From Haliotis asinina (lineage: Eukaryota), in the NCBI RefSeq assembly GCF_037392515.1, contig NC_090280.1, positions 54,237,037 through 54,301,036 on the forward strand: a stretch of DNA of 64,000 nt. The letters are read 5' to 3'. The first letter of the stretch is position 1. Each line of letters opens with the position of its first letter. A program made the translations under genes and the position numbers. Below, piece after piece: positions 22,440 through 53,985 of this stretch. The notes under the pieces were generated by a model. That model was given only the letters and a program-made list of their open reading frames with translations. It was not told the origin of the DNA and did not search any database.

Positions 22440-22800
22440 TATTCTGAAGGTGTAGCTGGAGTGAGTCAGTGAGTGGGTTTAGTTTTACGCCGCACTCAGC
22501 AATATTTCAGCTATATGCCGGCGGTCTGTAAATAATCGAGTCTGGACCAGACAATCCAGTGATCAACAACATGAGCATCGATCTGCGCAATTGGGAACCG
22601 ATGACATGTGTCAACCAAGTCAGCGAGCCTGACCACCCGATCCCGTTAGTCGCCTCTTACGACAAACATACTCGCCTTTTGTGGCAAGCATGGGTTGCTG
22701 AAGGTCTGTTCTACCCCGGGACCTTCACGGGTAGGTGTAGTTGGAATATGCAATACTTGGTTCACTCGTTCACTACGCATCCTATTGCCATCAGAGTTAG
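22440..22800 (-). mobile_element. Abundant SINE family, near full-length copy (tail (GAGT)n at the left end)
   Basis: Consensus-like ...ttttacgccgcactcagcaatatt.cagctatatgccggcggtctgtaaataatcgagtctggaccagacaatccagtgatcaacaacatgagcatcgat...gaccacccgatcccgttagtcgcctcttacgac... Fragments recur at 1975-2010, 2900-2990, 8400-8500, 12170-12330, 16900-17010, 45880-45970, 49560-49680, 57290-57500, 57730-58100 and 63060-63140. Confidence 0.55.
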
Positions 22801-22879
22801 ATTTTCGTAAGAGGCAACAATCAGATGGTAATGCTAACAGCAATACCGTGTGATTTCATTCCTTGAATTAATATTTTCT

Positions 22880-23060
22880 TAATAAGGAACGGACCCGGCT
22901 TGGATTTGCTCTTGAGCAAACCCATGCTTGTCACAAGAGGCGACTAACGGGATCGGGCGGTCAGGCTCACTGACTTGGTTGACATATGTCATCGTCTCAC
23001 AATTACATAGATCAATGATCATGATTTTGATCACTGGATCATGTAAGTAGTGCAGTGACG
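22880..23060 (+). mobile_element. Partial copy of the same SINE family in opposite orientation (head-to-head with the 22440-22800 copy)
   Basis: Reverse-complement of the body segment ...caagaggcgactaacgggatcgggcggtcaggctcactgacttggttgacatatgtcatcg... Confidence 0.45.
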
Positions 23061-25316: not shown

Positions 25317-25321
25317 AAACC
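25317..25321. repeat. Target-site duplication, left copy ('aaacc')
   Basis: Exact 5-bp direct repeat also found at 39625-39629, immediately outside both TIRs. A 6-bp reading is possible with one mismatch (gaaacc vs taaacc). Confidence 0.6.
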
Positions 25322-25642
25322 AGTAGTATAGGGAATGATAGTTCTGGACCACTTTCACAAAATGCCTCTACAAAGCCTTATTTAGTAAATAAGGCTTTGG
25401 TTGGGCCATTAGCTCTTGCTACTATTACCCCTACTACAAAATTACTGTGCCTTGGTAGGAGGTAACACTGTGCCGTACGGTACGATCAATAATTCTTCTC
25501 TTACAAATCCCCTACCCGGCCCATCCCTCAAGTAGTACAAGTTAGGTTCGTCGGCTTTCATATCCACTTTATCTATGTTGTAAGTTTTGACTGACCATAT
25601 AGGATCGGTGGCCCGCTTACGGCTATCGCCCTCGTGTTCCCC
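25322..25642 (+). repeat. Left terminal inverted repeat of the Polinton (321 bp)
   Basis: Reverse-complement of 39304-39624 with only a few mismatches, e.g. gcccgctt/gctcgctt, taaataagg/taattaagg and gggccattagctcttgc/gggctattagctcatgc (about 98% identity). Begins with AG. Confidence 0.85.
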
Positions 25643-26410
25643 CGGCTGGTATAGATACCTCACTAGGGCCCTATCTGGTATCTGTTTCTCCTTCCCACGC
25701 AATGGAGCGGCCGACTCTGCAACTATTGATTTTAGTTTGATAGCGTCTGCCGGTTTCTTACCGGTGAGACGGGTGACTTCATGGTTGATTGCCGACACCA
25801 CCTTGGGTAACCTCGTGACCCATTCAGTCGATCGTTTTCCAGGGGTGGCCATCTCCCTAGCATACTGATAGCCGAACAAGCGTTCAGCCAAAGTCCTATT
25901 AAATCTCTCAACTATGGCTTGGCTGCGATGGGCTCCGGCCGTGCCACGCCTGACCTTTGTATCGTGTTTGGCTAGCAGTTGTGACACGGCACCCATGAAC
26001 TCCCGTCCGGGGTCAACTTGCAGCTCTGTTGGCCACGTCAGCGGACTGCGTTTGTATATACGTTCGAATCCTCTGGCTACCTGGGCCGAATCTTTCGTGG
26101 TCAAGGGTTCGGCTTCCTTGTAACGACTGGCTACATCCACTACGGTTAAGGCATACTTGTACCTCTTGTCGTGGGGTAGGAACAGTAGGTCTGCCTGGTG
26201 AATGCTATTAGGTGTGTTAATACCGAACCTCCTTCTAGGCACGTAGCGTGGTGCCGGCAAATAGATCTGCCACAGGGCTTGTTTTTCAAGCCACGCTTTG
26301 GCTTCCTCCGGGGGTACTCGCGCTAGTTTAGCTAGCTTATCTACTGCGCTAGCTCCTTTCCAGTACCCACGCGGGCTGTAGTAAATAGCCTCAAATTTTT
26401 TCATGTCCAT
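25442..26410 (-). CDS. Retroviral-type (rve) DDE integrase, 322 aa
   Basis: ATG start. DDE triad context: ...SIHQADLLFLPHD..., ...ELQVDPGREF... and ...SQAIVERFNRTLAERLF..., which is the typical rve catalytic core. The 3' 200 nt lie inside the left TIR. Overlaps the pPolB stop by 20 nt. Confidence 0.85.
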   Translation of the reverse strand: MDMKKFEAIYYSPRGYWKGASAVDKLAKLARVPPEEAKAWLEKQALWQIYLPAPRYVPRRRFGINTPNSIHQADLLFLPHDKRYKYALTVVDVASRYKEAEPLTTKDSAQVARGFERIYKRSPLTWPTELQVDPGREFMGAVSQLLAKHDTKVRRGTAGAHRSQAIVERFNRTLAERLFGYQYAREMATPGKRSTEWVTRLPKVVSAINHEVTRLTGKKPADAIKLKSIVAESAAPLRGKEKQIPDRALVRYLYQPGEHEGDSRKRATDPIWSVKTYNIDKVDMKADEPNLYYLRDGPGRGFVREELLIVPYGTVLPPTKAQ

Positions 26411-29400
26411 ACGCGTATGTGTTTATACCATTAATAGCTATCCAACGTTTCGTGTCCATAGGCGATAGGGACGTCTTGTTTATAGTCAGTCCGTATATCT
26501 TATGCCCATCACTTCTAAGTGTGTTCATTTTATGTCTAAAGGTACGGGTCTTGAACAGGGCTTCCTTGAATCTGGCGTGTTTGATGTGTTGTTTCACCAC
26601 ATACTTCTTAACCCCCTTCGCCTTCCGGATCTCACTATTGTCGGCTTTCGGTATGGAGTACATCTTAGGTCTCAAACCTATGTACTCGGCTATGGGCGTG
26701 CCAGCACACTCGTCCTTCATCTTACCTAGGACCTTTTTATTTACAGTACTGTGTATGGCATGGGTCTTAGGGTAATCGCTGGTGTCGTATAAATCGAGGT
26801 GTTTTTTCATGTCCTCGTACACGTCCTCGGTTCGAATCTCCATCAGCAGGGAATCCGTGTCAGTGTACAGCACTTCACACCTGTCGCCGTACTGTTTCTT
26901 GAGCTCGTTGTAGTAAAAGTCGTACATCAGGTGTTTGGATAAATCGAGGATGCTCATCCCCACGTAAACAGGCCGGTTAAATTTTATGTGGCTTTTCTTC
27001 ATGTGTAGGGCAACCAGGTTGTCTGTGAATATCTTACTACGGTTGAATGCCGGACTGGCTATCAATCTCCTGAGCTTGTCTTCCTCACTCGACCGAACCA
27101 GCTTCACGGTCACGCGTTTCCTCAGGTTCTCCATAGTCTTACCAAACACCGAGTTGTTCATGAGCTTGTAGAGATTTTTCTCAAAATCACTGGTGGCTTT
27201 TTTTCGTAGGTCTGTGTTCATTCTGATGTAGGGCTCCATCCATGGACTCTGGTCGAACATGAGCACCCTGTGTATTTTGGTCAGCCTCATACCCAACGAC
27301 AGGTACAGCTGTAGGTTGCGATAGTGAACGATGTACTTGGTCTTATTTATTAAGTTAGGCACGAGTTTTTCAACGTCTGTCACACGCCCACCTGACAAGT
27401 TATGTTGGTACTCAGACATCCAGTCTGGGTTAACCCTCATACGTTCGGGTGCAAGGGGATAGCTGTTGTGCGATGTGTGTAATTCCTTGGGATACTCTAA
27501 GTCAACTTCGAGGATATAACCTTTGTTCGAATCTGGTGCAACCCCCATAACATCAACGTGGGGTACCCATTCGAATCCCCCTGTAGGTAGATACTGACTC
27601 ATGGCCCAGCCGTAGAGGTTGTTTGCGTCGAGGTAGAGAATGTGATTGGTTGGTTTGTTAGGATCGTAACCTTTCACGTATTGATTATTTGCTTTCGCGT
27701 ATCGTTTGGATGCCATGGAAATCCCACCTCGCAAGCCTTTCTCAATGAATAGGTGCATGTCGTAATCTGTGAGCAATTCTAAATTAACTCCGGTCTTTTT
27801 AAGCAAGGCGTCCCACGACAGACCTGGGCTGGTGTAATACCATGCGGGGTCGAGTTTATACTGCTTTAAACATGTCTGCCGAAACGTTTCAAACACGTCG
27901 GCTAACAGCAGTACATCTGTCCTCAAGTACAGGTCGTGATAATCACCCAGGTTCTTACAACCCAGTTTATTCCATACGTTAGTCGCGTGCGAGTAATCAT
28001 CTCGTGAGACGGACGCCTCATTCAGCTTGCTATAAAAGCAGTCAATAGGGGGTAGTCTGGTCTCGGTGAACTTGGCCCAACTATCCATGTACTCATAGGG
28101 GTACACACCCTTCCTCATAAGCAGGGGTCTAGTCTCGGCGTCTGTGTATCGATCGGTGATAGGGAAGGTATTGTTGGCCTTGACCAGACTGTCGAGTGAC
28201 GACAGGAGGAACTGAAACGAGTCAATGAACCTAAGTCCGTTTAAGCTGAAGGAGATGTATCTTTCCATGTTGTTGGGGATGCACGTTATATTACCATCGA
28301 TTTTCGCGATGGCCTGCATGATCAAGTGTGAGTCGTACCCTCTCAAGTTGTGAAAGACAACGGGGATGTTTATTGTCTTAGGGTTGATTTTAAGCTTGAG
28401 GTTGCACGCGTTGTGAGCGGCGCCTCTATACTTACCAGTTATGTGGCAGTGATCTCTCACCGAATCACCGTTAAGTGGTGAGTCGCACACGTGACAGTTA
28501 GTGCTACTAGCGTGAGCTAGCCTGTCGGCTCGGGTCATACGCATGGGAGCGATTCTATACAATGCATTCCTAATAATTTTTTCTTCCTCCTGCAAACACT
28601 TTAGAAACCTTTCAGCCGCGTCAGGGCCCCTATACACTACCGGAGCTTTAGTTTCCCCGTCACAACGGACGACAATGTATCCAAAACCGCAGGCCTTATG
28701 TTCCTGGGTTTTGTGGGTGAAGCTACCACCACTGGGGGCCTCGCCGGCGGCAGCCACTAAGGCTTCGAAGTCGGCGTATATGATGTAAGGTACAGACATT
28801 TGGTTCTTGTGGTTACTGAATTTTAGGATATTTTCACCTTCCTTAGGCATGTCGACTCGTATGGCTGTCTGCCCCACACCTTGGCAATCATCCCGGTGGG
28901 ATTCTAATAAATCAGCTCGACTGAAACCGTGTAGGCATCGTACACAAAAGTGTTTTTCCCCAACGTGTTTCGACTGGTCGTGCAACAACCGGCTGAGATG
29001 TTTTATCCACGTGTAGTGATACTTTTCACCTCGCTGGATCATGAATATATTGATAACTTGGCAATCCTTCACCGTGCTGACCCTGTGTACTATTGTTGTG
29101 TTACCTTCATACCCAAAGACATTTATAGCCAGATTATTCTGTTTTTCTACTTTAGTGATCTGGGATATGGGGGTGGGTTCATCTATACCATCCCAGTTGA
29201 GCCCATCGTCTTGGGGATAGCTAGAAAGCCTATCTGAATGAGTGCCAGCTGGAAATAAGGCTGACCTGATAGCTAACCTCAGGCAATCATTTCCTCTATT
29301 CTTAACGTTTACTATGGCATGTTTGTTCCTATAGTAGGGAGGCAAGGCTAGGTATGACCCGCCTCTGAACGGCACGTAGTTAGCTATGTCTAGATAGACA

Positions 29401-30086
29401 TTATCGATTTTATCTACAGCCCACCCGGACCCCAAGTGTGTGTAGCGTTCTAGGTATTCTCGTATCTGCTGAAAACTATTATCGATTGATGCGTCAATGG
29501 TCTCTGCATGTGTGACGACCTCTTGTTGACCTCGGAAGTAAGGCTGAACATACTCAGTGGTACTCCCAACCTGCTTATCGAGCGACATTTTCACTGTGAT
29601 CTGAAACTTGATACTTCCTAGATTATTTAGTTCCTGGTTGACCTTATCAGCTATCAGAGGCTTGATATCTATAATGTCTATGTTTCTATCAACGTGCATG
29701 CGCCAACCTCTCAAATAGTTGCCTACAGCGCGCTCAGTGCTCACGAACTGTAGGTCAATAGCTCTATTCTGCCGTAATAATTCTAAAAGCTGTGGTTTTC
29801 TCATACGGGAATACCCGCCTAAACCCAAATCGTGTGCCTCGGCTTTCAGTTGTTTTACAGTGGGAGGTTTTGCTACGGGGGCATGTGATAACAATGCGGT
29901 TAACCCGGCTCTCCCCAGGTTTGAATAACCCGTGTGCCCAAGCTGTTTTGCTTGAGCTTTTAATTGTTTTACCGTAGGAGGGGCTTCTAAACCTAGTAAT
30001 CTCAACAATGCTGACTTCCGCATTCTAGAATACCCGATCACACCTCTCTGTTTTGCGACCCTCTTGAGCTCGCGCACAGTAGACAT
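26391..30086 (-). CDS. Protein-primed family-B DNA polymerase (pPolB), about 1231 aa
   Basis: Exonuclease motifs: Exo I IIYADFEALV, Exo II VFHNLRGYDSHLI, Exo III YHDLYLRTDVLLLADVF. Polymerase motifs: A YLDANNLYGWAM, B KLMNNSVFGKT, C VLYTDTDSLLM. The N-terminus has three tandem SAP-like repeats of about 35 aa. The ORF track extends to 30110 using a TTG start; the first ATG is at 30084-30086 (MSTVRELKR...). Confidence 0.9.
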   Translation of the reverse strand: MSTVRELKRVAKQRGVIGYSRMRKSALLRLLGLEAPPTVKQLKAQAKQLGHTGYSNLGRAGLTALLSHAPVAKPPTVKQLKAEAHDLGLGGYSRMRKPQLLELLRQNRAIDLQFVSTERAVGNYLRGWRMHVDRNIDIIDIKPLIADKVNQELNNLGSIKFQITVKMSLDKQVGSTTEYVQPYFRGQQEVVTHAETIDASIDNSFQQIREYLERYTHLGSGWAVDKIDNVYLDIANYVPFRGGSYLALPPYYRNKHAIVNVKNRGNDCLRLAIRSALFPAGTHSDRLSSYPQDDGLNWDGIDEPTPISQITKVEKQNNLAINVFGYEGNTTIVHRVSTVKDCQVINIFMIQRGEKYHYTWIKHLSRLLHDQSKHVGEKHFCVRCLHGFSRADLLESHRDDCQGVGQTAIRVDMPKEGENILKFSNHKNQMSVPYIIYADFEALVAAAGEAPSGGSFTHKTQEHKACGFGYIVVRCDGETKAPVVYRGPDAAERFLKCLQEEEKIIRNALYRIAPMRMTRADRLAHASSTNCHVCDSPLNGDSVRDHCHITGKYRGAAHNACNLKLKINPKTINIPVVFHNLRGYDSHLIMQAIAKIDGNITCIPNNMERYISFSLNGLRFIDSFQFLLSSLDSLVKANNTFPITDRYTDAETRPLLMRKGVYPYEYMDSWAKFTETRLPPIDCFYSKLNEASVSRDDYSHATNVWNKLGCKNLGDYHDLYLRTDVLLLADVFETFRQTCLKQYKLDPAWYYTSPGLSWDALLKKTGVNLELLTDYDMHLFIEKGLRGGISMASKRYAKANNQYVKGYDPNKPTNHILYLDANNLYGWAMSQYLPTGGFEWVPHVDVMGVAPDSNKGYILEVDLEYPKELHTSHNSYPLAPERMRVNPDWMSEYQHNLSGGRVTDVEKLVPNLINKTKYIVHYRNLQLYLSLGMRLTKIHRVLMFDQSPWMEPYIRMNTDLRKKATSDFEKNLYKLMNNSVFGKTMENLRKRVTVKLVRSSEEDKLRRLIASPAFNRSKIFTDNLVALHMKKSHIKFNRPVYVGMSILDLSKHLMYDFYYNELKKQYGDRCEVLYTDTDSLLMEIRTEDVYEDMKKHLDLYDTSDYPKTHAIHSTVNKKVLGKMKDECAGTPIAEYIGLRPKMYSIPKADNSEIRKAKGVKKYVVKQHIKHARFKEALFKTRTFRHKMNTLRSDGHKIYGLTINKTSLSPMDTKRWIAINGINTYAYGHEKI

Positions 30087-30144
30087 CGTGTTTACACCTA
30101 AGAGAACCAATGTCTAATTGGTTCACAGTAAGGGGAGGTAACTC

Positions 30145-30405
30145 TTAAGTGGCTATCTTGAGCAGTCGCCTACGTTCTTTTATGTAGCCTTTTTTATTCT
30201 CGTAGATGAGTTGATGTCTGACTACGTTCGCTCCGTGAGCTTTACATAGACAGTAGTGTCCTTTAACCCCGATACCACACACAGAACACGTGTAGTTAGG
30301 ACTTCCCATATGGAAACAACAGAACCCCTGATTCCTGCATTTCCTACCACAGGCCTCGGTCTTCCCCATAAGTATGTATTCGCATCGGTATGGAGCGGGT
30401 CTCAT
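30145..30405 (-). CDS. Small Cys/His-rich protein, 86 aa (putative zinc-binding)
   Basis: ATG start. 11 Cys and 5 His in 86 aa, with CxxC-like pairs (CSVCGIG, CLCKAHG). Tightly packed between pPolB and the next ORF. Confidence 0.4.
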   Translation of the reverse strand: MRPAPYRCEYILMGKTEACGRKCRNQGFCCFHMGSPNYTCSVCGIGVKGHYCLCKAHGANVVRHQLIYENKKGYIKERRRLLKIAT

Positions 30406-30424
30406 GTTTACTTATATAGGTATT

Positions 30425-30850
30425 TTAGTTTAATTGCTTAGCAACCAACGCAGTAGCTGCTATACCCAACACTATGAAGCCCAGTTCACGATTCATTTGT
30501 CCCTTGGATGGTGTGTAGTACTGAGCGAGTGTGGGTTTATTGAGCGGTTCCAATTGTTTACCAGTTAGTAGATAGTATTCTTTCATTGCTTCATCGACAT
30601 CGTAGAATGTTTTAATGGCATGGTTTTCACGCTTGAGCTGTTCATTAATAAAATCGATCCTCTGGAGGCGTTTTTTAACGTACTCGTCCTGTGCCTTTTG
30701 TAAGTTCTCAGTAGCGAGATCGTGCCGCTTCCTTTCTTCCTGTATTTCAGCCGCGTGATCATCTCGTAGTTTCGAGAAGAGGAAATTACTCCCGGAAAAT
30801 GCCAGGGCATTCACTAACGCCCCACCGACCATCATAGCTATCGTGGCCAT
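30425..30850 (-). CDS. Hypothetical protein, 141 aa, with N- and C-terminal hydrophobic segments and a central charged coiled-coil-like region
   Basis: ATG start. The ORF fills the gap between neighbours with 8-19 bp spacers. Confidence 0.4.
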   Translation of the reverse strand: MATIAMMVGGALVNALAFSGSNFLFSKLRDDHAAEIQEERKRHDLATENLQKAQDEYVKKRLQRIDFINEQLKRENHAIKTFYDVDEAMKEYYLLTGKQLEPLNKPTLAQYYTPSKGQMNRELGFIVLGIAATALVAKQLN

Positions 30851-30858
30851 CCCTATAT

Positions 30859-31086
30859 TTATTTCATTATATTATCAGGTATTATTCCTTGTTTTACTAG
30901 GATGTCTTTTGTGGCCATCGCCATACCAAGGTTCATTATGAGCATACCCATATCCTGCAGGTTGAAATCTAGCTTGATAGTTGGTTGTTTAAGCACCATT
31001 TTAGTCAACCGAGCGTACCCTACTGCTAGACTGGCTACCACTGTGGCGTGGTATGCGTCGTTGACGAACGTTTTCCCCTCAGACAT
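30859..31086 (-). CDS. Hypothetical small protein, 75 aa
   Basis: ATG start and tight packing. No recognisable motif. Confidence 0.25.
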   Translation of the reverse strand: MSEGKTFVNDAYHATVVASLAVGYARLTKMVLKQPTIKLDFNLQDMGMLIMNLGMAMATKDILVKQGIIPDNIMK

Positions 31087-31113
31087 TATGTATATGATAT
31101 AAAATATTTTAAA

Positions 31114-31482
31114 TTATAACATGATATGCGGGTCTACCATGGGGGATACCCCCATACCCCCACTGTTGTGGGTGGGGGATACCCCCACACCCCCACTGTT
31201 GGGGGTGGGTGGTGGCTCACTGTGGGAGGGTACCCCCACGTATAACCACGAGATGGCCAAGGCAGCAGTTACACCTACAGCCAACAACAGTCGGGTTGGA
31301 TTGGCCACTTTATGTTGGTTACACCACCGTTTTTTACCGGCAGCTACTCTCTTAGGATTCTTCTGTCTGGTTACTGTTGAAGTGGTCTCCACCGTCACTG
31401 GTTCCTGTGAACTCACTGTTGGGGGTGTGGGGGGTACCACCACTGGGGTCTCCTCCACTGGGGTTTCCTGTGCAGCATCCAT
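31114..31482 (-). CDS. Pro/Thr-rich protein with one predicted transmembrane helix, 122 aa
   Basis: ATG start. PTP-rich N-terminus, a hydrophobic stretch LLLAVGVTAALAISWLYVGV, and an internal direct repeat PPPTPNSGGVGVSP/THNSGGMGVSP encoded by a GGGGG..CCCCC-rich DNA repeat. Overlaps the 3' end of the upstream ORF by 130 nt in another frame. Confidence 0.35.
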   Translation of the reverse strand: MDAAQETPVEETPVVVPPTPPTVSSQEPVTVETTSTVTRQKNPKRVAAGKKRWCNQHKVANPTRLLLAVGVTAALAISWLYVGVPSHSEPPPTPNSGGVGVSPTHNSGGMGVSPMVDPHIML

Positions 31483-32050
31483 CTATACTATTATTATTAT
31501 TCTTTCTCTCAAATTGGCAATGTTTTGCCGTGATAATCGCCGCCGTCACTGGAGCCAACAACATACCATATTTGTGGTACAGCCCGCAGCTGATAGAGCT
31601 CACGGCGTGTTCGATAAAAGGGTCTTTCTCGAGGTCCTCCCACAGGTAAAGTCGGCGCTCTGGTGGAATGGGAAGGAAGTGTGATACAATACCGGTGTAT
31701 ATCTGGGTCATAGCCGATCCTATTGTCTTTGTCATTTCTGCTCCGAGCCGGGACTCGTATCTAGCGTATAGCTTATCGATTTCTTCGGCTGACATTTTGT
31801 GAATTTTATCCGGAGTGTAGTCTCCAAAGTAATGTTTGGCTTTGCCGCCAACAGCCAACGCCACCAGTTTCTCTCGCTTGTCATCAGTGGGGCCTGCCGT
31901 ACCCCCAGGTACCAACTGTTCAAGCAATTCCTCACACTCCATCTTATAATATAACAAGTAAGATTTAGTTTTAACTATATAATACCCGATGCAGACAAAA
32001 CACAGAGAAATGAAGGTTAAGTTGCACACGATAAATACTTCAAATATCAT
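31352..32050 (-). CDS. Candidate adenain-like (Ulp1/C5-family) cysteine protease, 232 aa; assignment tentative
   Basis: By-eye resemblance to the adenovirus protease catalytic residue context: HFL (cf. HWL), RLYLWEDLEKDPF (cf. YLFDPFGF) and SSISCGLYH (cf. SAACGLFC). The spacing is shorter than in adenain. A protease is expected next to the ATPase in Polintons. Confidence 0.3.
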   Translation of the reverse strand: MIFEVFIVCNLTFISLCFVCIGYYIVKTKSYLLYYKMECEELLEQLVPGGTAGPTDDKREKLVALAVGGKAKHYFGDYTPDKIHKMSAEEIDKLYARYESRLGAEMTKTIGSAMTQIYTGIVSHFLPIPPERRLYLWEDLEKDPFIEHAVSSISCGLYHKYGMLLAPVTAAIITAKHCQFERKNNNNSIDGCCTGNPSGGDPSGGTPHTPNSEFTGTSDGGDHFNSNQTEES

Positions 32051-32141
32051 AGCTATATGCTTAGCTTTGCTTAGCTTTGCTTAGCTTTGCTTAGCTTTAG
32101 CTTAGCTTTGCTTAGCTTTGCTTAGCTTTGCTTAGCTTTGC

Positions 32142-32764
32142 TTAGCACACTCTATATGCTACTGGTTGGTCGGTCTTTAGTACGAGCTTAGCGTGTTTAG
32201 TTTCAGCGAGCTGTTTCTTCACCCGTTCCCGTTCTAATTTACTCATCACATCGTTCTCTCTCAAACACTCCTCAAACGAATCCCTGTCCTTGCAGTGAAA
32301 TAAGGCCACCCATCGCGTCTGCTCCCTGAGGTCTTTCAACACCGAGTTGAACTTCTGCGTTAGCACCCAGACGCTGTGATTTGCATGCCGGCCGGAGAAG
32401 GCCAGGTACGATAGCATGTCTCTCTTTTTTGTTATCTCGCGATTAGCGCTGCAGTCGTCTAATATGAACAGCGTCGGTTCTCCTTTAAATTTCTCGTGAA
32501 GAGCTTTCAACCAGTCCTGCAGGCGTGTTCCAGGGTCGATTTTGTGTACGTCCGGGTCATCACCCAAGGTCGCGCGTACGTTTTATTCATGCTCAGAGTA
32601 GGGCACATGATAACGATGTTATCGAACACATCCTTGTAATAACCCTCTAACATATCCAACACGAAAACGGTCTTCCCACAGCCAGTCTGCCCGCACACTA
32701 TGGCGCAGTGTGGGTCAGTGGGTAACCCCAGGGGGGTGTGGGGTGTGGGGGGGGTACCCCCCAT
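32142..32764 (-). CDS. FtsK/HerA-superfamily (poxvirus A32-like) DNA-packaging ATPase, disrupted by a 1-nt frameshift
   Basis: Walker A CGQTGCGKT in the 85-aa ORF 32507-32764. Walker B TLFILDDC in the 141-aa ORF 32142-32567 (TTG start). The frames differ by 1 nt. Adding one T to the T4 run at 32581-32584 (A4 on the coding strand) fuses them: ...MCPTLSMNKNVRATLGDDPDVHK... Confidence 0.8.
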
Positions 32765-34020
32765 CAGTAGATGGCTTGCACGAATCTCCCATTGTCTATA
32801 TTAAGTTGCGCGTCCATAATAACGTACAGATATAATTTCAACTTACCAGCAGTTTGAGCCTTCTTAGTAATCTGGATGGTTATCCCTTCGCTGCCGTTAT
32901 CTATACGGCGCCCGCTACCGTGCAGTTTATCATCATCCGTGGATCGCATGTCCAACCATAGGGCGTACTTGGTGGTCAGGTATTCACCGATCTGCACGGA
33001 GCTTAGGTCCAGGTCCTTTGTTATATAATCCCCCACTGGTAGCTTTTTTATCTCATCCCACTGCTGGTGTGGTCTCATACCATGACTGAACAGCTGGTTG
33101 GGCACGCCCTCGATGGTCACTTCCACCTTTTCAATCTCGGGGTTGAAAAACTTCTCGCTGTCCCTCTGGAATGGCTCGTAATCCTCCACGGGGACGACCA
33201 GGATACCTTTCATCGATCTCGCCGGCACGTTCAGGTTGATATTCCACACAGTGTCGCTCTTATCTTGCACGACTGATCTATGTCTCAGTACGCGATCGTA
33301 CAGGATAGCCATCTTCCCAGAGTACTGGCTTCGAACCTGCCTGGCCAGCTCCGGGCTAGTGACCATGTCGAACTCCAGAGAGATGTTGTCTATGGCATAA
33401 CTGGCCTCATCACCGTTCGGAGTACGCACTACTTTGCTATAGTCGTTAAACGTGAGCTCGTATTCGAGCCTATCACCCAGCGCGGCCTGGTAAAACGGCG
33501 CGTGTCCCGTGAGCAACTCGAAGTCGAGCGGCACGCAGAATCGATTCCCGTATGCTAGAGCGATGGCCTTTTCACCGGCCGATAGCTTGTCTTGCTGGTC
33601 TTGCGTGAAGACATACCCTATGCGCGCCCGGGTTGATTTGCTGATACCCTGGTACACATCATTGACTCGTTCTCCATCGCTTTTCCAGAGATCCTTGTAG
33701 CAGTGAAACACGTCGCTGTCGTCGATGCTCAGCACCTCGTTACCGCTGATCTTGACGGTCGTTTTCTTGATGATAGCTCGCCCCACGTTCCGCACTAGCT
33801 CGCGTTTATCGTTGACGGAGGTCAACGTGATATTGAACGCCAGTCGAACAGTGCCTGGTACAATGAGGTCATTCTCACCAAGGTTTGGAAATCTAACCAG
33901 CAGAGTTTGATTCTGGTCTATCTTGCTGGGATTATTGGTGATGGTCACCGACTGGCGCACGGCTCTGGCACCTAATGGCTCTCTCAATTTTCTGAAAGGA
34001 TCTAATTTTCTGCCGTACAT
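32764..34020 (-). CDS. Candidate major capsid protein (double jelly-roll type expected), 418 aa
   Basis: Largest unassigned ORF, immediately upstream of the ATPase with an ATGA stop/start overlap. Size fits Polinton and virophage major capsid proteins. No motif-level proof. Confidence 0.45.
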   Translation of the reverse strand: MYGRKLDPFRKLREPLGARAVRQSVTITNNPSKIDQNQTLLVRFPNLGENDLIVPGTVRLAFNITLTSVNDKRELVRNVGRAIIKKTTVKISGNEVLSIDDSDVFHCYKDLWKSDGERVNDVYQGISKSTRARIGYVFTQDQQDKLSAGEKAIALAYGNRFCVPLDFELLTGHAPFYQAALGDRLEYELTFNDYSKVVRTPNGDEASYAIDNISLEFDMVTSPELARQVRSQYSGKMAILYDRVLRHRSVVQDKSDTVWNINLNVPARSMKGILVVPVEDYEPFQRDSEKFFNPEIEKVEVTIEGVPNQLFSHGMRPHQQWDEIKKLPVGDYITKDLDLSSVQIGEYLTTKYALWLDMRSTDDDKLHGSGRRIDNGSEGITIQITKKAQTAGKLKLYLYVIMDAQLNIDNGRFVQAIY

Positions 34021-34053
34021 TGTTATATAAAAGAAATATATTTTTAATACTAA
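34021..34053. promoter_or_regulatory. 33-bp AT-rich divergent intergenic spacer with a TATATAAAAG TATA-like box
   Basis: Lies between the minus-strand capsid ORF start (34020) and the first + strand ATG (34054). Sequence ttatataaaagaaatatatttttaatactaatg. Confidence 0.35.
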
Positions 34054-34364
34054 TGGATGAAGATATACCTATGGATGAGATGCCGGGCGCTAGTGCCCAG
34101 GCATATGATGAGCAGGAGACCTCATTTACTAGTTCACCATTGAACCAAGAACTCTTGGAAACAACGGTAAATGATTATTTCGAAAGTTTAAGAAGAGATA
34201 AAAACTACGTTGAACCACAGGGTCGATACCATAAGGATTTTTTTATTGATACAAAGGGTGTTCTACGCCTTAAGTCTGACCCAGGGGTTGACCTCTTTAA
34301 CAAGAGCAATAAAAAACCACTGGCCTTGTCAACTCTAGCCAGCCGCTATGGTGTAAAAATCTAA
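34054..34364 (+). CDS. Hypothetical acidic protein, about 103 aa (ORF track begins at 34020 with a TTG start)
   Basis: First ATG at 34054 (MDEDIPMDEMPGAS...). Starts the + strand block, divergent from the capsid gene. Confidence 0.3.
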
Positions 34365-34366
34365 AC

Positions 34367-35200
34367 ATGAATGATTACGGTGGTGCAATACCTAAGGCCG
34401 TTAAAGAAGATCTGCAAGCTACCAGATCCCACCTCACCACTAGAGATGAAATGACACCACAGCGTGCTACAGAAGCCTCAGACAGCATAGAAAAACTGTT
34501 GAGCACCTACTGGGACAAACCGTTACCGGGGTTTGACTTTCCGGTAAGGGAACTGCGCGGCTTAGACGAAGCCGTGAAACGCGTGCGTGGAGAACTCGTG
34601 AACAACATGGGGAAACTGAACGAAATCGACGAGCACATCGCTAGGGAAAAAACCAAACTCAACGAAACTGAAAACGATGATATGAAGCGCCGTATCAATG
34701 AACGACTACGCGATTTAGAAGACGAGAGACGTACACGATTGGAATCCGCTTCCTCGAATCGTGAACAGCTTCGATCCCAGATCAGTCGTATTCGGGAAAC
34801 AATCGATAGAATACTGAATGAGGATACAACTTTAGCCAACAGGATTCGGATATTGTTCCGGGAGCAAGGGATCACCATCGCCAGTATTCTGACTGCATTG
34901 GGTTTTATCATATCAACCCTGGTGGTGTCACTGACGGGGGGAACCCCCACACATGGCGGAGGGGGAACTCCCAGCGGTGGTGGGGGTGTTAAAGACTGGA
35001 TTAAAAAACTCGGGGAAGGCCTAGCTAAACTGGCTGGTAAAGCCGCCGAAGCCCTTCCCGGCATACTGGGTAGCATCGTCTCGTGGTTGTTGAGCGCTCT
35101 GTCTAAAACTGCCATGTGGCTCAGTGAAAACCTGTGGGCAGCCATCGTCGCCGTGGCGGGTCTGGTGTACGTAGCGGCTAAGAAATCTTTAACCAAATAA
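34367..35200 (+). CDS. Coiled-coil and Gly-rich membrane protein, 277 aa
   Basis: ATG start. Long charged heptad-like region (REKTKLNETENDDMKRRINERLRDLEDERRTRLE), then a hydrophobic helix, a GGTPTHGGGGTPSGGGG linker and a second hydrophobic C-terminal region. Confidence 0.4.
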   Translation: MNDYGGAIPKAVKEDLQATRSHLTTRDEMTPQRATEASDSIEKLLSTYWDKPLPGFDFPVRELRGLDEAVKRVRGELVNNMGKLNEIDEHIAREKTKLNETENDDMKRRINERLRDLEDERRTRLESASSNREQLRSQISRIRETIDRILNEDTTLANRIRILFREQGITIASILTALGFIISTLVVSLTGGTPTHGGGGTPSGGGGVKDWIKKLGEGLAKLAGKAAEALPGILGSIVSWLLSALSKTAMWLSENLWAAIVAVAGLVYVAAKKSLTK

Positions 35201-36341
35201 GTCCCAAAGCTACCCCACCAACCACTAGGGCTGTTTTATTATCAATATGCTGCTGTACCCCCACATGCACATGAGGGTGTGTGGGGGACACATGAACTTT
35301 AGGCTCCGGGGGTGGCGCCACTATACCCTTTTCACGTGGTGGGATGTGTGGGATATAGGGGGTGTTAATATCGGGGTTGATACCCAACTTTTGGTCCGCC
35401 GTGGCTATGACTATTTTATTGTTATAACCCACCACTTTTTTTACTCTCAGTTGCATATCACTCGGAGCCATGTACAACCCCACGCCGAACACGTAGTTGA
35501 CTTTCGATCTGGCGTATTCTAACACGTTTTGGTAGCGTTCGATGGCCCGCGGGAGATCAACTGGAGAATTGATAGCATCCTCAACGTTGGAAACGAACTG
35601 TGTCTGAGCGTCGTAAGCAGTTCCCTTACCGAGGATGTTGGAACGCGTCATCGACTGCGCACCCAACAGCGCCCACACGTACGTTCGAATCGAGTCGTTC
35701 AAGCGTATTGTACCAGCACGAGTGAATTCTTTCGATGTTTTTGAGATCATTTTAGTCCAGGCTGTGGCTGCATCAGGATTGGTTTGCTTTATACAGCTGA
35801 CATGGATCTTTTCATTCGTTGTGGGGCCTGTAAATGTATGACGGTTTGGGTTGTATGAACCATCTTTAGAACCGGCCTGATATGTTCCGGACCTGTAGAA
35901 GTACACGAGAACTATACCGAGACCATGGTTCACACCAGGAAGGCGAAAGTCTTTATTCGTTGGAATCTCAAACTCCCCACAAATACGTTCATAAGCGCGT
36001 CTATCATAGGGGTTATTCGTCATACTCCACGCTTTATCTTGGGGAAGAGGAGCACTTATTTCCTTCAATATTCGTCTCGTTTGATAATAAATATGAAACA
36101 AAATAACCGCCTTACTCAGTTCGTCTATACCGTAGTCTGGTGTCACACCCGACCCTGTCGTCGCACACCACACAGCAAAGTTTAGTTGGTTCTGCCAAAA
36201 CTGCATTGGGTTTTGATTCCAGTTTACCATCGCCTGCGCGTTATTAACGGACACGATATATTTTTCAAAGATATTAATAAAGGTTGTTTTAAACCCCGTA
36301 CCATCTGCATTCACCACGATTTTCAAGTGTGCTAAATCCAT
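35178..36341 (-). CDS. Hypothetical protein, 387 aa, with a C-terminal hydrophobic anchor; possible structural (capsid or penton) protein
   Basis: ATG start. Intact long ORF inside the element, C-terminus ...ALVVGGVALGLIWLKIS. No diagnostic motif recognised. Confidence 0.4.
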   Translation of the reverse strand: MDLAHLKIVVNADGTGFKTTFINIFEKYIVSVNNAQAMVNWNQNPMQFWQNQLNFAVWCATTGSGVTPDYGIDELSKAVILFHIYYQTRRILKEISAPLPQDKAWSMTNNPYDRRAYERICGEFEIPTNKDFRLPGVNHGLGIVLVYFYRSGTYQAGSKDGSYNPNRHTFTGPTTNEKIHVSCIKQTNPDAATAWTKMISKTSKEFTRAGTIRLNDSIRTYVWALLGAQSMTRSNILGKGTAYDAQTQFVSNVEDAINSPVDLPRAIERYQNVLEYARSKVNYVFGVGLYMAPSDMQLRVKKVVGYNNKIVIATADQKLGINPDINTPYIPHIPPREKGIVAPPPEPKVHVSPTHPHVHVGVQQHIDNKTALVVGGVALGLIWLKIS

Positions 36342-36370
36342 ATTATAATATATAAATTATATATTATAAT
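36342..36370. promoter_or_regulatory. 29-bp AT-rich divergent spacer (attataatatataaattatatattataat)
   Basis: Lies between the minus-strand ORF start at 36341 and the + strand ORF start at 36371. Pure A/T with TATA-like runs. Confidence 0.3.
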
Positions 36371-37024
36371 ATGTACATAACACTTCCAGGAATAACGAGC
36401 GGTGAGGCCGTTCAGCTGACGCACGCGATCGATAACACGTCAGGTCAACTCGAAGTCGCACTCTGCGATATCACCTACCTACCGCAATGGACTAACATCA
36501 ACGCCAGCAACAATAAGCTGTTCGTCAGTGGAACTCGCAGTCAGATAACTGACGGCTACTACAGCGTGTGCTCTCTAAACGACGAGGTCTTCAAACCCCT
36601 GGGAGCCGAACTCAAGATGAACGACTCAAACGGTACAGTGGTGTTAATCAACAACGGAAGAACCTCCTTGAGGCTAGGCCGACCATTAGCGAGGATACTC
36701 GGTATGTCTCCTGACGAGATAAAACCAACAACAACCGTCACAGGCACGAAGTTACCCGACCTAGTACCGTACCGAGAGCTGTACATTCATCTCGATCAGG
36801 TGAGCACAACGTACAACATTCAAGGAGGTCACCCTTCCACTATACTGAGAGCAGTGCCGGTGAAAACTGAGAAATTCAACGACGGTAGAACCGAGTCATT
36901 TTCACCACGGCAGTATAAGAGATTAACCCAGGGCAACATACCTGAGCTGACAATATCGGTGTTAGATATAAATCATAATCCTGTAAATATAGGATACCTC
37001 AGCTTAACGCTTCACGTAACATGA
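36371..37024 (+). CDS. Hypothetical protein, 217 aa; size compatible with a single-jelly-roll minor capsid (penton) protein
   Basis: ATG start. Its stop overlaps the next ORF's start in an ATGA (37021-37024). Confidence 0.35.
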   Translation: MYITLPGITSGEAVQLTHAIDNTSGQLEVALCDITYLPQWTNINASNNKLFVSGTRSQITDGYYSVCSLNDEVFKPLGAELKMNDSNGTVVLINNGRTSLRLGRPLARILGMSPDEIKPTTTVTGTKLPDLVPYRELYIHLDQVSTTYNIQGGHPSTILRAVPVKTEKFNDGRTESFSPRQYKRLTQGNIPELTISVLDINHNPVNIGYLSLTLHVT

Positions 37025-37935
37025 CCAGCGCACAAGGGCCCGGAGTGAAAAAATGCGTCAATATCGGGATCTCCGACCTCGGAGACACACGCGGTTTCGA
37101 CGCTCCCGGAGTAGATGGTAAATCGTACGCCTTGCAACTGAAAAACAACATTTACAAACGCGTTGAAATCCCCTCCGGTGGAACCCTAAGTGATATGATA
37201 GATACCACAAGAGCAACAGTCAACACTAAGTACACCCTTGTCAACACCGGTGATGACAACTGGGTAATATACCCATCGTTCGGGGGTAAACTGTTCGACT
37301 TAGACGATGTTGAGAGCACTACCGTCGTCAAAAACAAACCATATATGCTCGTCTTCACCGAAGATGACAAGTGGGTGTTGTTACCCGATAAAGACGACTG
37401 GTTGATCAATATTAGACTCATCTCCCCTTACGTGTTCACAGATAACAAAGACAACCACCTAAACAAAGTCGTGAACAATGGAACCCTGCTCGTGGCTTAC
37501 GTCCCAACTCAAAGACGTAGCGTAGTCGTCAGCCCAGCCAACACTGCGGTAGCCCACATGCTATCGAGTAAACCGGCCGTACAAAACGTGAAATTGCAGT
37601 TGGTGTCTGAATTCGAAGGCGTGACCAAGGTACTAGATAATATAACGATAAACGGAACACTGATCATCAAAGTCTACCTAGGGGAACCATCGGGGAATAA
37701 TATCGAGATCGTGAAGGGGATCAAACTCGGGTGGGGTAAACAACATCAGTTTCAAATTTGTAATGTTTACGTGCGGGGGGGTGTCGACCCCAAGACCAGT
37801 CTACAGGGGGTCAACGTGATCGTGGAAAATAAGATATCACTAATCAATATCTTCCTGCCTGACAACATACACTTCATGGGTATGAAGTTAACCCCTGAAT
37901 TATTATCAGAAAACCAGTTGGAAATTATATCATAA
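37021..37935 (+). CDS. Lineage-specific protein P1, 304 aa; paralogue of the next ORF
   Basis: Shares an N-terminal LGDTRGFDAPG motif, a W(L)INI(R)L(I)SPY(V) block and a C-terminal LSENQLEIIS with ORF 37946-38644. Confidence 0.45.
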   Translation: MTSAQGPGVKKCVNIGISDLGDTRGFDAPGVDGKSYALQLKNNIYKRVEIPSGGTLSDMIDTTRATVNTKYTLVNTGDDNWVIYPSFGGKLFDLDDVESTTVVKNKPYMLVFTEDDKWVLLPDKDDWLINIRLISPYVFTDNKDNHLNKVVNNGTLLVAYVPTQRRSVVVSPANTAVAHMLSSKPAVQNVKLQLVSEFEGVTKVLDNITINGTLIIKVYLGEPSGNNIEIVKGIKLGWGKQHQFQICNVYVRGGVDPKTSLQGVNVIVENKISLINIFLPDNIHFMGMKLTPELLSENQLEIIS

Positions 37936-37945
37936 TAGTATAATA

Positions 37946-38644
37946 ATGACTAGTCATCATCCCAACACTACGCTTAACGACCTGGGAGATACGGAGGGAT
38001 TCGATCAGCCTGGTGAGGAAGATGAATTATACATCCTGCACTTCAAAGACAACGTGTACAGACGGGTGTCGTTATCAGATTTTAAAGAGCCCAAATGGCT
38101 GATCAACTTAACACTCACCTCACCTTATATCACAATAAACATAAATACGTGGATGATCTCTAAGATTAGGAACAACGGTATCTGGCCCGGGGATTTCATT
38201 CCGGAGAGGGAATTAGCATTCAAGATAGCTACTGCTGGTGCTGAAAAAAATATATTAAATTCTGGACCAAAAAATAAATTAACATTTAGCTATAATACTC
38301 ATAACATAAATCTTGTTAATAGAATATTCTCCCCTTTCACACTCATCATAGAAGTCTTCTTTACGTCTTTACTACATGAAAACATCTCAAGAGTACACCA
38401 AATTTTACCCGGGGTGTCAATACACTGGTATGACGAACAACACACATTCAAATATTGTCGTATTGTTATACAACAGAATACCACGGGTCCTATAAACAGC
38501 TTAATAAGCCTCAGTGGGGTTTTTATTACAACAGAAAAGTCTATTAGCCTCTCACCTATTACCCTGACTAGTAGTCTAAAACTTGTAGACTTCAAATTCA
38601 TTGATAAAGTATTAACTGAAACCCAATTAAAATATCTTTCATAA
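37946..38644 (+). CDS. Lineage-specific protein P2, 232 aa; shorter paralogue of P1
   Basis: LGDTEGFDQPG, WLINLTLTSPYI and a C-terminal LTETQLKYLS. Tandem duplicate of the previous ORF. Confidence 0.45.
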   Translation: MTSHHPNTTLNDLGDTEGFDQPGEEDELYILHFKDNVYRRVSLSDFKEPKWLINLTLTSPYITININTWMISKIRNNGIWPGDFIPERELAFKIATAGAEKNILNSGPKNKLTFSYNTHNINLVNRIFSPFTLIIEVFFTSLLHENISRVHQILPGVSIHWYDEQHTFKYCRIVIQQNTTGPINSLISLSGVFITTEKSISLSPITLTSSLKLVDFKFIDKVLTETQLKYLS

Positions 38645-38657
38645 TATATATTATAGG

Positions 38658-39275
38658 ATGGGTCTGTACCCAGTCGTAGAGGAAGTAGCGAAGACGCTGG
38701 AAACCGTAGATGGGTTCCGCTTGAGGCAGTTATGTGATGTGAAACGTCAACTAGAACAAGACCGTGACACGCGGAAAGCTCTATGTAAGAAGTACAATAG
38801 AGCTTTCAATATCGTGGACGGGGCTGACACTACCCTTATGGCAACCAGCATGGGACTAGGGGCGGCAGGCGTTGGGTTGTTAACCACCATCGTGGCTGCA
38901 CCTATAGTGCTAGGTATTGAAATAACGGCTGGGGTGACAGGGTTGGTAGGGTTGGCGCTTAAGTTAGTATCACGCAGACTTAATCGTAAGGCATTGAAAC
39001 ACGACGAGATCAGGGTTCTGGCTGAAGCAAAGCTGAACACAGTGAGTGAGCGTATTTCCACGGCACTCTCTGACAGTAAGATCTCAGAAGAGGAGTTTCG
39101 TTCAATCCTCTCTGAACTCACAAAATATAACGGAATGAAACAAGATATTCGGTCCAAGTCTCGTAAGTCTGCTATCAGCGAGGACGAGAAAAAAAAGTAC
39201 ATAGAACAGGGAATACAAAAAGCCCAGCAAGCCTTTATTACGAACACCAAAGAGATCATAGGCGGTTCACGTTAA
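38658..39275 (+). CDS. Hypothetical membrane protein, 205 aa
   Basis: ATG start. Central hydrophobic pair (GLGAAGVGLLTTIVAAPIVLGIEITAGVTGLVGLAL) flanked by charged regions. Last ORF before the right TIR. Confidence 0.4.
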   Translation: MGLYPVVEEVAKTLETVDGFRLRQLCDVKRQLEQDRDTRKALCKKYNRAFNIVDGADTTLMATSMGLGAAGVGLLTTIVAAPIVLGIEITAGVTGLVGLALKLVSRRLNRKALKHDEIRVLAEAKLNTVSERISTALSDSKISEEEFRSILSELTKYNGMKQDIRSKSRKSAISEDEKKKYIEQGIQKAQQAFITNTKEIIGGSR

Positions 39276-39303
39276 ACTGTTTCCTCGATATAAACATGAC
39301 ATA

Positions 39304-39624
39304 GGGGAACACGAGGGCGATAGCCGTAAGCGAGCCACCGATCCTATATGGTCAGTCAAAACTTACAACATAGATAAAGTGGATATGAAAGCCGACGAAC
39401 CTAACTTGTACTACTTGAGGGATGGGCCGGGTAGGGGATTTGTAAGAGAAGAATTATTGATCGTACCGTACGGCACAGTGTTACCTCCTACCAAGGCACA
39501 GTAATTTTGTAGTAGGGGTAATAGTAGCATGAGCTAATAGCCCAACCAAAGCCTTAATTACTAAATAAGGCTTTGTAGAGGCATTTTGTGAAAGTGGTCC
39601 AGAACTATCATTCCCTATACTACT
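39304..39624 (-). repeat. Right terminal inverted repeat of the Polinton (321 bp)
   Basis: Reverse-complement match to 25322-25642 and ends with CT. On the + strand it encodes a copy of the last 66 codons of the integrase (...GEHEGDSRKRATDPIWSVKTYNIDKVDMKADEPNLYYLRDGPGRGFVREELLIVPYGTVLPPTKAQ*). Confidence 0.85.
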
Positions 39625-39629
39625 AAACC
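39625..39629. repeat. Target-site duplication, right copy ('aaacc')
   Basis: See left copy. Confidence 0.6.
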
Positions 39630-53000: not shown

Positions 53001-53235
53001 TTGTTGCTGGTAATGATCGTTAATGATCAGGATGGCTGTTGTTGATAATAGTGGTTAATGATTAGGAACGTTGTTGCTGGTAATGATCGTTAATGATCAG
53101 GATGGCTGTTGTTGCTAATTGTGGTTAATCATTAGGAACGTTGTTGCTGGTAATGATCGTTAATGATCAGGATGGCTGTTGTTGCTAATTGTGGTTAATG
53201 ATTAGGATGGTTGTTCCTGATGATGGTGGGCATTT
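50090..53235. repeat. Satellite array, about 3.15 kb, 70-bp unit made of two diverged 35-bp half-units, with periodic variant units (higher-order structure)
   Basis: Unit ttgctggtaatgatcgttaatgatcaggatggctgttgttgataatagtggttaatcattaggaacgttg, repeated about 45 times. Variant units (ttattgctgataatggtcgt...gctaattgtgg) recur every few repeats. Lies in intron 4 of gene B. Confidence 0.85.
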
Positions 53236-53883: not shown

Positions 53884-53985
53884 GGATGGTTGTTAACGAT
53901 AATTAGGATGGTTGTTAACGATAATTAGGATGGTTGTTAACGATAATTAGGATGGTTGTTAACGATAATTAGGATGGTTATTGCT
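53884..53985. repeat. 22-bp tandem repeat x 4.5 (ggatggttgttaacgataatta)
   Basis: Direct repetition. Related in sequence to the 70-bp satellite half-unit. Confidence 0.7.

Follow-up and report, generated by a model that had tools for sequence, protein, structure and literature searches.

Introduction

Polintons, also called Mavericks, have been proposed as the ancestors from which several eukaryotic dsDNA virus groups arose, and how their linear genomes, which are capped by a terminal protein (TP), reach the nucleus, stay in it and integrate is not known. As laid out by Krupovic et al. 2024 (PMC11161782), the protein-primed polymerase of Polintons, pPolB, is composed of a PRD1-like TP domain (D1), a vOTU domain (D2), an exonuclease and a polymerase. 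D1 is described there as a relative of the Y-family polymerase LF/PAD that has a Ser or Tyr near Gly or Pro in its alpha2-beta4 loop; vOTU is proposed to cut the TP from the polymerase, data on pGKL1 point to a cut between TP and vOTU, and the handling of the TP before integration remains unclear. Here we describe the pPolB of a Polinton from Haliotis asinina, located in a stretch of 64,000 nucleotides (the window; NCBI RefSeq assembly GCF_037392515.1, contig NC_090280.1, positions 54,237,037 to 54,301,036 of the forward strand), in which three helix-extended loop-helix (HeH) units stand in front of D1.

Two further themes from described systems bear on this protein. Insertions of nucleases into Polinton pPolBs have been published, namely HNH domains in the pPolB2 of nematodes and oomycetes and VSR domains in the pPolB2 of marine nematodes and molluscs (Jeong et al. 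2023), and Krupovic et al. 2024 speak of 'diverse homing endonuclease domains'. DNA targeting by TPs is also on record: the phi29 TP has an N-terminal domain that binds DNA non-specifically, targets the nucleoid and is required for replication to be efficient in vivo, and the adenovirus TP serves as an anchor of the genome at the nuclear matrix (PMC4974454).

With respect to the HeH units, PMC11161782 has only D1 and D2 upstream of the exonuclease and contains the word 'zinc' 0 times, and its sections consulted here mention neither SAP nor HeH. The adintovirus paper makes no mention of SAP, LEM, terminal protein, zinc finger or endonuclease, and in the library searched no paper was found that links Polintons, Mavericks, adintoviruses, virophages or protein-primed replication with SAP, Rho_N or HeH. 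The module itself is common and promiscuous, TPs with a DNA-binding N-terminus are well known, and the Rho_N match is already picked up by automatic pipelines. The HeH module adds a domain to the published D1-vOTU-Exo-Pol scheme, and, being basic and placed on the free end of the TP, it is a concrete, testable candidate for contact with DNA or chromatin, while the clade-wide Endonuclease VII-type nuclease and the C2HC finger of the same protein, described below, are further candidates for end processing.

Results

The pPolB gene and its three N-terminal repeats

The pPolB gene is an uninterrupted open reading frame (ORF) of 1239 codons at 26391..30110 on the minus strand, with a TTG as its listed start. 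The first ATG, at 30086, gives a protein beginning MSTVREL... and is the likely eukaryotic start; residues are numbered from it throughout. About 350 homologues were found, the best of them 55-64% identical and many with the Pfam family DNA_pol_B_2 (PF03175), and the polymerase motifs DANNLYG, KLMNNSVFG and YTDTDS stand at aa 820, 974 and 1074. An exact-sequence look-up of this pPolB gave no record; its named relatives are from Elysia, Actinostola, Oculina, Lineus, Stylophora and Hydra. From its N-terminus the protein is ordered as three HeH units, D1 (TP), vOTU, a C2HC finger, a disordered linker, an exonuclease into which an HNH domain is inserted, and the polymerase (Table 1). Conservation was read from an alignment of aa 1-620 with 68 homologues (69 sequences in all), and structure from an AlphaFold2 (AF2) model of the same N-terminal 620-aa region with a mean predicted local distance difference test (pLDDT) score of 82.9; Pfam scores were judged by the curated cut-offs of 24.9 bits for Rho_N, 23.9 bits for SAP and 23.6 bits for Endonuclease_7. 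This structural and architectural description of pPolB is offered with high confidence.

Table 1. Features of the Polinton and of its pPolB (positions of the window; residues counted from the ATG at 30086)
Feature	Residues	Position	Strand	Basis or remark
pPolB polyprotein, 1231 aa		26391..30086	-	single open frame from ATG 30086
HeH repeat 1, TVRELKRVAKQRGVIGYSRMRKSALLRLLG	3-32	29991..30080	-	Rho_N 28.1 bits alone; AF2 helices 4-13, 24-30, pLDDT about 79-87
HeH repeat 2, TVKQLKAQAKQLGHTGYSNLGRAGLTALLS	38-67	29886..29975	-	degenerate; 47-53% identical to repeats 1 and 3; AF2 helices 39-48, 59-67
HeH repeat 3, TVKQLKAEAHDLGLGGYSRMRKPQLLELLR	76-105	29772..29861	-	Rho_N 26.9, SAP 16.4 bits alone; AF2 helices 77-86, 97-107
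D1, PRD1-like terminal-protein domain	118-238	29373..29735	-	AF2 fold, conservation, Foldseek
vOTU-like cysteine protease	240-372	28971..29369	-	catalytic C268 and H357
Putative C2HC zinc finger, C381-x2-C384-x12-H397-x3-C401	379-401	28884..28952	-	conservation and AF2
Low-confidence linker, N-terminal module to exonuclease	402-430	28797..28883	-	pLDDT <50 at 404-416, 420-426
Endonuclease VII-type HNH (His-Me finger) domain	529-563	28398..28502	-	inserted between ExoI and ExoII; PF02945
Polinton/Maverick element, complete		25322..39624	.	14,303 bp; terminal inverted repeats, target-site duplication and GC contrast
Left terminal inverted repeat, 321 nt		25322..25642	+	overlaps integrase ORF 3' end
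Right terminal inverted repeat, 321 nt		39304..39624	-	pairs with left repeat
Retrovirus-like integrase (rve)		25442..26410	-	Pfam PF00665, 41.2 bits vs cut-off 32.6
Putative FtsK/A32-type packaging ATPase, split between two reading frames		32142..32764	-	Pox_A32 and Walker A

An initial annotation of the window, made from the letters alone, had claimed three tandem repeats at the N-terminus of this protein and their fusion to a protein-primed polymerase. Both claims hold: all three repeats are present, with periods of 35 and 38 aa, and a single frame joins them to a polymerase with recognisable pPolB homologues. Between any two repeats 14-17 of the 30 residues are identical, and the BLOSUM62 score of each pair was reached by none of 20000 shuffles. 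At the nucleotide level the repeats are 47-53% identical and their third codon positions match at 8-11 of 30, which is near random, and Tandem Repeats Finder detected no DNA-level repeat in 29500-30300. A protein pattern kept at such low nucleotide identity, with no repeat seen in the DNA, points to an old repeat maintained at the protein level, and we read the three units as a real, old, protein-level repeat. A local expansion artefact, which the initial annotation had raised as something to check, is rejected, since the low nucleotide identity and the empty Tandem Repeats Finder result rule out both a recent slippage expansion and an error of assembly. The 113-aa array as a whole is strongly basic, with 21 K/R vs 6 D/E and a pI of 11.3.

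Family and fold of the repeats

The repeats had initially been assigned to the SAP family, and this assignment stands in part. The closest curated family is Rho_N (PF07498), which scores 47.3 bits on the whole protein and 57.2 bits, in 3 stretches, on the N-terminal 161 aa, whereas SAP (PF02037) reaches 16.7 bits on the N-terminus and so stays below its cut-off. Homology to a solved SAP domain is nonetheless detectable. A profile of 54 units, taken from pPolB and from the proteins of the exhaustive HMMER search described below, matches the Ku70 SAP domain (1JJR) at E=1.2e-9 and full-length Ku70 at E=0.017, and it also matches the N-termini of Rho (3L0O, 8HSJ and 7OQH) at E=1e-5 to 2e-4. The profile was needed for the SAP/Rho relation to be seen, as phmmer with the 113-aa N-terminus against the PDB gave only a spurious match to FhuC.

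The predicted structures agree with this placement. Two AF2 models show a helix, an extended loop and a second helix in every unit (pLDDT about 70-88). The best structural match of a unit is Rho 1A62, at 1.4 A over 40 residues, so that the unit superimposes on the N-terminal subdomain of Rho. On profile and model evidence, then, the repeats are best described as HeH modules of the SAP/LEM/Rho_N fold class, with Rho_N as their closest curated family. SAP domains are carried by the Ku70 C-terminus, SAF-A/B, PIAS, DEK and FAN1; the pPolB unit differs from them in a loop that is two residues longer (the G-Y of GYS, which faces a gap in the Ku70 alignment).

With the Rho_N domain of the bacterial terminator Rho the units have in common the pattern ELK..AK..GI.GYS+M+K.ELI..L. 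Unlike Rho, pPolB carries its units in tandem, in a eukaryotic mobile element, and neither an OB-fold nor a RecA-type ATPase was found after the repeats by Pfam or in the AF2 model. Thus pPolB and Rho share a domain, and pPolB is no Rho factor.

The terminal-protein and protease domains behind the array

Directly behind the array, D1 is modelled as a beta/alpha fold with strands at 125-131, 159-191 and 222-236 and helices at 138-156 and 194-216 (pLDDT 81-95). The loop that joins the second helix to the last strand holds an S220 that is invariant among the 69 sequences, with G219 and G221 on either side nearly so; Ser220 of this G219-S220-G221 motif is the predicted priming residue of the TP. 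A Foldseek search of the PDB with the 620-aa model gave Y-family polymerases (Pol kappa, Dpo4, iota and eta) as top matches at E=4e-4 to 1e-2; this search of the whole model brought out only the relation of D1 to the Y family, and no match was reported for the HeH, finger or HNH parts. D1 thus has the features of a PRD1-like TP, that is, a sheet with two helices, a relation to the Y-family LF/PAD and a Ser near Gly in the alpha2-beta4 loop.

The initial annotation had mentioned OTU-like domains as something that other pPolBs carry at the N-terminus instead of the repeats. This does not apply here, for the same protein has a vOTU downstream of its TP domain. C268 and H357 are invariant in the 69 sequences, and the model is papain-like, with C268 at the start of the helix 268-277 and H357 within the strand 355-361; conservation and the whole-region model together place the catalytic Cys at the start of alpha1 and the His in beta4, as in vOTU proteases. 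Further on, the exonuclease motifs ExoI (D439/E441) and ExoII (N580/D585) are found. The protein agrees with the scheme of Krupovic et al. 2024 in the order D1, vOTU, Exo and Pol, in the catalytic Cys and His, in the Gly-flanked Ser and in the Y-family relation, and differs from it in the three HeH units before D1 and in the C2HC finger after vOTU. A cut by vOTU in the linker at 402-430, after a conserved G-[IV]-G, was also considered; it is kept as speculation, as the pGKL1 data favour a cut between TP and vOTU.

Distribution of the HeH units among homologues

The initial annotation held that such an array is not a standard feature of Polinton pPolBs. In line with this, no paper describing it was found, and among the close homologues surveyed (the best 120 of about 350, with polymerases 55-64% identical) 117 have no HeH unit and carry unrelated leaders before a conserved GNYLRGWxM. 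An array, of two units, is present only in P0001, which together with P0147 (below) is nearest to the query (homologues are denoted by P numbers), and P0015 and P0031 have one Rho_N/SAP-like unit each (Rho_N 21.6 bits in P0031). In P0061 a possible unit was seen by eye only, with no Pfam match. The leaders of the other homologues include the MDEYIEQLLAEM type, a SHOCT-like segment with PAPR repeats and, in P0073, three C2H2-like fingers, and in homologues P0002-P0120 the leader of pPolB is a hotspot of module swapping. Leaders of the MDEYIEQLLAEM type continue as ..KPLQPxKYRP, the PAPR repeats after the SHOCT-like leader number 3-12 copies, and the fingers of P0073 match zf-C2H2 at 25.3 bits. 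A duplicated leader module of ~90 aa, FKxFHxI..NGL..W.RL..K..FYAK, occurs in P0078, P0080, P0084, P0085 and P0090.

More distant homologues give a different picture, and the claim of a non-standard feature is only half right. When the N-terminus was put to a word-indexed homologue search, two 94-aa proteins of two units each were all that came up, and an exhaustive HMMER search was needed; with the array alone it returned 178 proteins at E<=1e-3, mostly small and with 2-6 units. Among these are pPolB N-termini. P0147, the closest relative, has 2 units followed by GKYLRGWRM, P0251 has 2 units, D1, vOTU and the finger, and P0175 has 4 units, D1 and vOTU; the ORF that comes next on the P0175 contig matches the remainder of the query polymerase at 46% identity and includes the Endonuclease_7 segment. 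P0175 and P0251 share only 19-21% identity with the query in D1-vOTU, and a rough neighbour-joining tree of 174 columns, which is not to be over-read, places them outside all other homologues. A search with P0175 yielded 92 pPolB N-terminal fragments, 56 of which start with HeH units: 47 have a single unit, 8 have two and 1 has four. About 14 include the start of D1 with no unit, and the remainder are truncated at the N-terminus. A scan of viral_contigs with aa 1-401 found no relative.

Comparison with orthologous copies, a check that had been proposed at the outset, thus found the units in P0001, P0147, P0175 and P0251 and found most close homologues to be without the array. By these counts, a TP domain capped with HeH units is usual in one deep pPolB lineage but found only in a minority of pPolBs in the lineage of the query, and three copies are at the upper end of the range of units. 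Either one ancient fusion followed by repeated replacement or several acquisitions would give this distribution.

Arrays of the unit also occur in many small proteins with unrelated partner domains (kinase, FHA and HNH). Pairs of HeH units were seen inside proteins of 840-2400 aa (P0197, P0204, P0220, P0234, P0240 and P0258) that, by eye, look like phage head-morphogenesis (MuF/SPP1 gp7-like) polyproteins; if so, here too the HeH module would be part of a protein that accompanies a viral genome. P0121, a stand-alone 94-aa two-unit protein (L003 2093-2377; L004 1095-1379), adjoins a D12-class DNA methyltransferase on metagenome contigs of 9-14 kb with short unannotated genes, which are probably viral. 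P0332 is a 606-aa pPolB N-terminal fragment (HeH, D1, vOTU and onwards) that was deposited, from a metagenome-assembled genome, as 'Rho termination factor N-terminal domain-containing protein, partial [Balneolales bacterium]'. Its contig is probably eukaryotic or viral and mis-binned into a bacterial genome, the name being taken from the Rho_N match, and the same match explains misleading automatic names of this kind in general.

Proposed role of the array

The array may be a flexible, strongly basic and multivalent nucleic-acid-binding arm at the extreme N-terminus of the pPolB polyprotein. As it lies directly upstream of D1, it would form an N-terminal extension of the TP domain and would stand on the TP side of either proposed protease cut, whether between TP and vOTU or after vOTU; because of this position it should be retained on the TP after cleavage and so remain with the TP on the genome ends. 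Following protein-primed initiation it would stay covalently joined, via the TP, to the linear genome at its 5' ends. There it would bind duplex DNA or chromatin in a sequence-unspecific manner, and would thereby keep the TP-polymerase at the ends of the template, or keep TP-capped genomes attached to host chromatin or the nuclear matrix. Such a tethering role appears reasonable, given that nothing separates the array from the terminal-protein domain. From the fold class of the units, their charge and multivalency, their place at the free TP end, their conservation at the protein level and their recurrence across deep divergence, we infer, with a probability of about 0.55, that the array is a sequence-unspecific DNA- or chromatin-binding arm of the TP. 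The TPs of phi29 and adenovirus are its proposed functional analogues, likewise combining a basic N-terminal TP segment with targeting of TP-DNA, and the phi29 TP differs in being a separate protein of unrelated sequence and fold, with a different TP fold.

Several points weigh against a DNA- or chromatin-binding arm. HeH modules are not all DNA binders, the LEM domain binding the protein BAF, and the helical subdomain of Rho is itself not the main RNA contact. Repeat 2 is without the basic S-R-M-R-K turn and has no Pfam match on its own. Most close homologues lack the array and carry unrelated leaders, which indicates that the array is dispensable for polymerase function. Lastly, the place where vOTU cuts in Polintons is given as unknown (PMC11161782).

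The LEM-BAF case suggests that the units could instead be protein-protein adaptors, recruiting a host chromatin factor or a component of the virion or packaging machinery to the TP-capped ends. The fold class does hold protein-binding LEM domains, similar arrays of units are found in many small proteins beside the unrelated kinase, FHA and HNH partners, and the array sits on a TP, a kind of protein that elsewhere serves packaging and localisation (PMC4974454). The sequence matches, however, are to Rho_N and to the SAP domain of Ku70, both nucleic-acid-associated, with no LEM domain among the matches listed, and a pI of 11.3 fits nucleic-acid binding better than a specific protein interface, so that we consider an adaptor role rather unlikely. 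Binding of RNA, as the name Rho_N might suggest, could couple the polymerase or the TP to transcripts, but no OB-fold or other part of Rho is present, the rest of the protein is a DNA replication machine and the unit profile matches the DNA-binding SAP domain of Ku70 even better than Rho; we regard this as very unlikely.

It could also be argued that the leader is fast-evolving and largely unconstrained, the repeats being a tolerated, lineage-specific duplication with no specific function. The sequence before GNYLRGWxM is hypervariable in type and length among pPolBs whose polymerases are 55-64% identical, copy number is 3 vs 2 even between close relatives, and the second repeat is degenerate. 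Against this, the amino-acid pattern of the unit has been kept while synonymous positions were randomised, and the unit heads pPolBs only 19-21% identical in D1-vOTU, being the majority state in that lineage. Other leaders, too, are built of tandem small modules of nucleic-acid-binding type, such as the 3 zf-C2H2-like fingers of P0073, and this suggests selection for a function at the leader position; drift with no function is, on balance, unlikely to account for the array. An artefact of the gene model, with the repeats belonging to a separate upstream gene or exon, might be suspected from the uncertainty of eukaryotic gene structure in the absence of annotation and from some database homologues with clearly wrong N-termini. 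As a single stop-free frame leads from the ATG at 30086 across the repeats and on into D1, and the upstream ORF ends at 30145, and as the same fusion is found in P0001, P0147, P0175, P0251 and dozens of fragments, we hold this to be extremely improbable.

An extension of the DNA- or chromatin-binding arm is more tentative. The leader before the TP domain might be a swappable cassette (HeH x1-4, zinc fingers x3 or basic PAPR repeats) that tethers TP-capped Polinton genomes to host chromosomes, with the triple HeH array as its high-avidity version. This is a doubtful proposal; if true, the cassette would set nuclear retention, episomal persistence or the choice of integration site, and would be akin to the chromatin tethers of other nuclear DNA viruses and to retroviral integrase-tethering factors.

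The two Cys/His motifs

The initial annotation had also pointed to two zinc-binding insertions further along the protein. Both strings of Cys and His exist in the protein, CVRCLHGFSRADLLESHRDDC spanning aa 381-401 and HVCDSPLNGDSVRDHCHITGKYRGAAHNAC spanning aa 532-561, and their Cys and His residues are invariant or nearly so among the 69 sequences. The first, in which C381, C384 and H397 are invariant and C401 is nearly so, is modelled as two short strands followed by a helix at 391-400 (pLDDT about 78-85). Pfam gave no zf-C2H2 match to it at E<=10, and its last ligand is a Cys, vs a His in the classical C-x2-4-C-x12-H-x3-5-H; by conservation and predicted fold it appears to be the classical beta-beta-alpha zinc finger in a C2HC variant.

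For the second string the description as a zinc-binding insertion falls short, as it is best read as an Endonuclease VII-type nuclease domain and thus as more than a zinc site. PF02945 matches pPolB at 25.0 bits (E=1.8e-5), vs the cut-off of 23.6, and many homologues have the same precomputed match; a profile of the segment against PDB sequences gave a weak E-value of 0.024. C531, C534, H546, H558, C561 and N562 are invariant, and D545, C547 and H548 nearly invariant, in the 69 sequences. In the register of T4 endonuclease VII, C531/C534 correspond to C23/C26, D545-H546-C547-H548 to D40-H41-D42-H43 and H558/C561/N562 to C58/C61/N62, one zinc ligand being changed from Cys to His (C58 to H558). 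The score, the zinc ligands and the D-H-x-H...N catalytic set are thus all those of the Endonuclease VII family.

The HNH residues are conserved among homologues that are only 39-55% identical over the aligned N-terminal 620 aa, and this speaks for an activity that has been kept and against a homing endonuclease in decay. Processing of the TP-capped ends before integration would be an attractive role for it, but a purely speculative one. Like the nuclease insertions published for Polinton pPolBs, this is a predicted zinc-binding HNH-type nuclease with conserved catalytic residues inside the pPolB polypeptide. Set beside those insertions, which include a PacI-like HNH, it differs in matching the Endonuclease VII family (PF02945) and in lying between ExoI and ExoII.

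The Polinton and its surroundings

The element that carries this pPolB gene is a young, essentially intact Polinton/Maverick, with pPolB, an rve integrase, terminal inverted repeats (TIRs) and a short target-site duplication. The TIRs, of 321 nt each, are 99% complementary, the ends are AG...CT, and the 5-bp direct repeat AAACC stands at 25317-25321 and 39625-39629; the GC content is 0.45-0.50 in the interior vs 0.34-0.43 in the flanks. By tblastn there is one polymerase copy only within the window. The integrase gene adjoins that of pPolB, and ~200 nt at the end of its ORF (about 67 codons; 25442-25642) fall within the left TIR, so that the 3' end of the integrase is duplicated as an inverted copy at the right end of the element (39304-39504).

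The putative packaging ATPase, split over two frames, is the sole visible defect of the otherwise intact Polinton. Pox_A32 (PF04665) scores 21.7 bits on 32142-32567, just below its cut-off of 22.8, and the Walker A motif GQTGCGKT lies in an overlapping ORF in another frame at 32507-32764; a frameshift, a short intron or a sequencing error could explain the split. For the capsid and protease ORFs of the element a Pfam scan, the only search made, gave no matches. Directly upstream of pPolB, at 30145-30405 on the minus strand, is a Cys-rich ORF of 86 aa with no Pfam match, whose Cys pattern resembles, by eye, the Cys-rich N-terminal extensions fused to pPolB in P0047 and P0079.

Outside the Polinton, a pair of 116-nt inverted repeats at 22554-23039, 86% complementary, 254 nt apart and with shorter inverted repeats nested, looks like an element resembling a miniature inverted-repeat transposable element, upstream of the Polinton. 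A satellite at 50301-53219 consists of ~42 copies of a 70-bp unit, 91% matching and with a strong GC skew (0.45-0.52), and smaller arrays of 22-bp and 36/72-bp units lie at 53883-53979 and 54402-54632.

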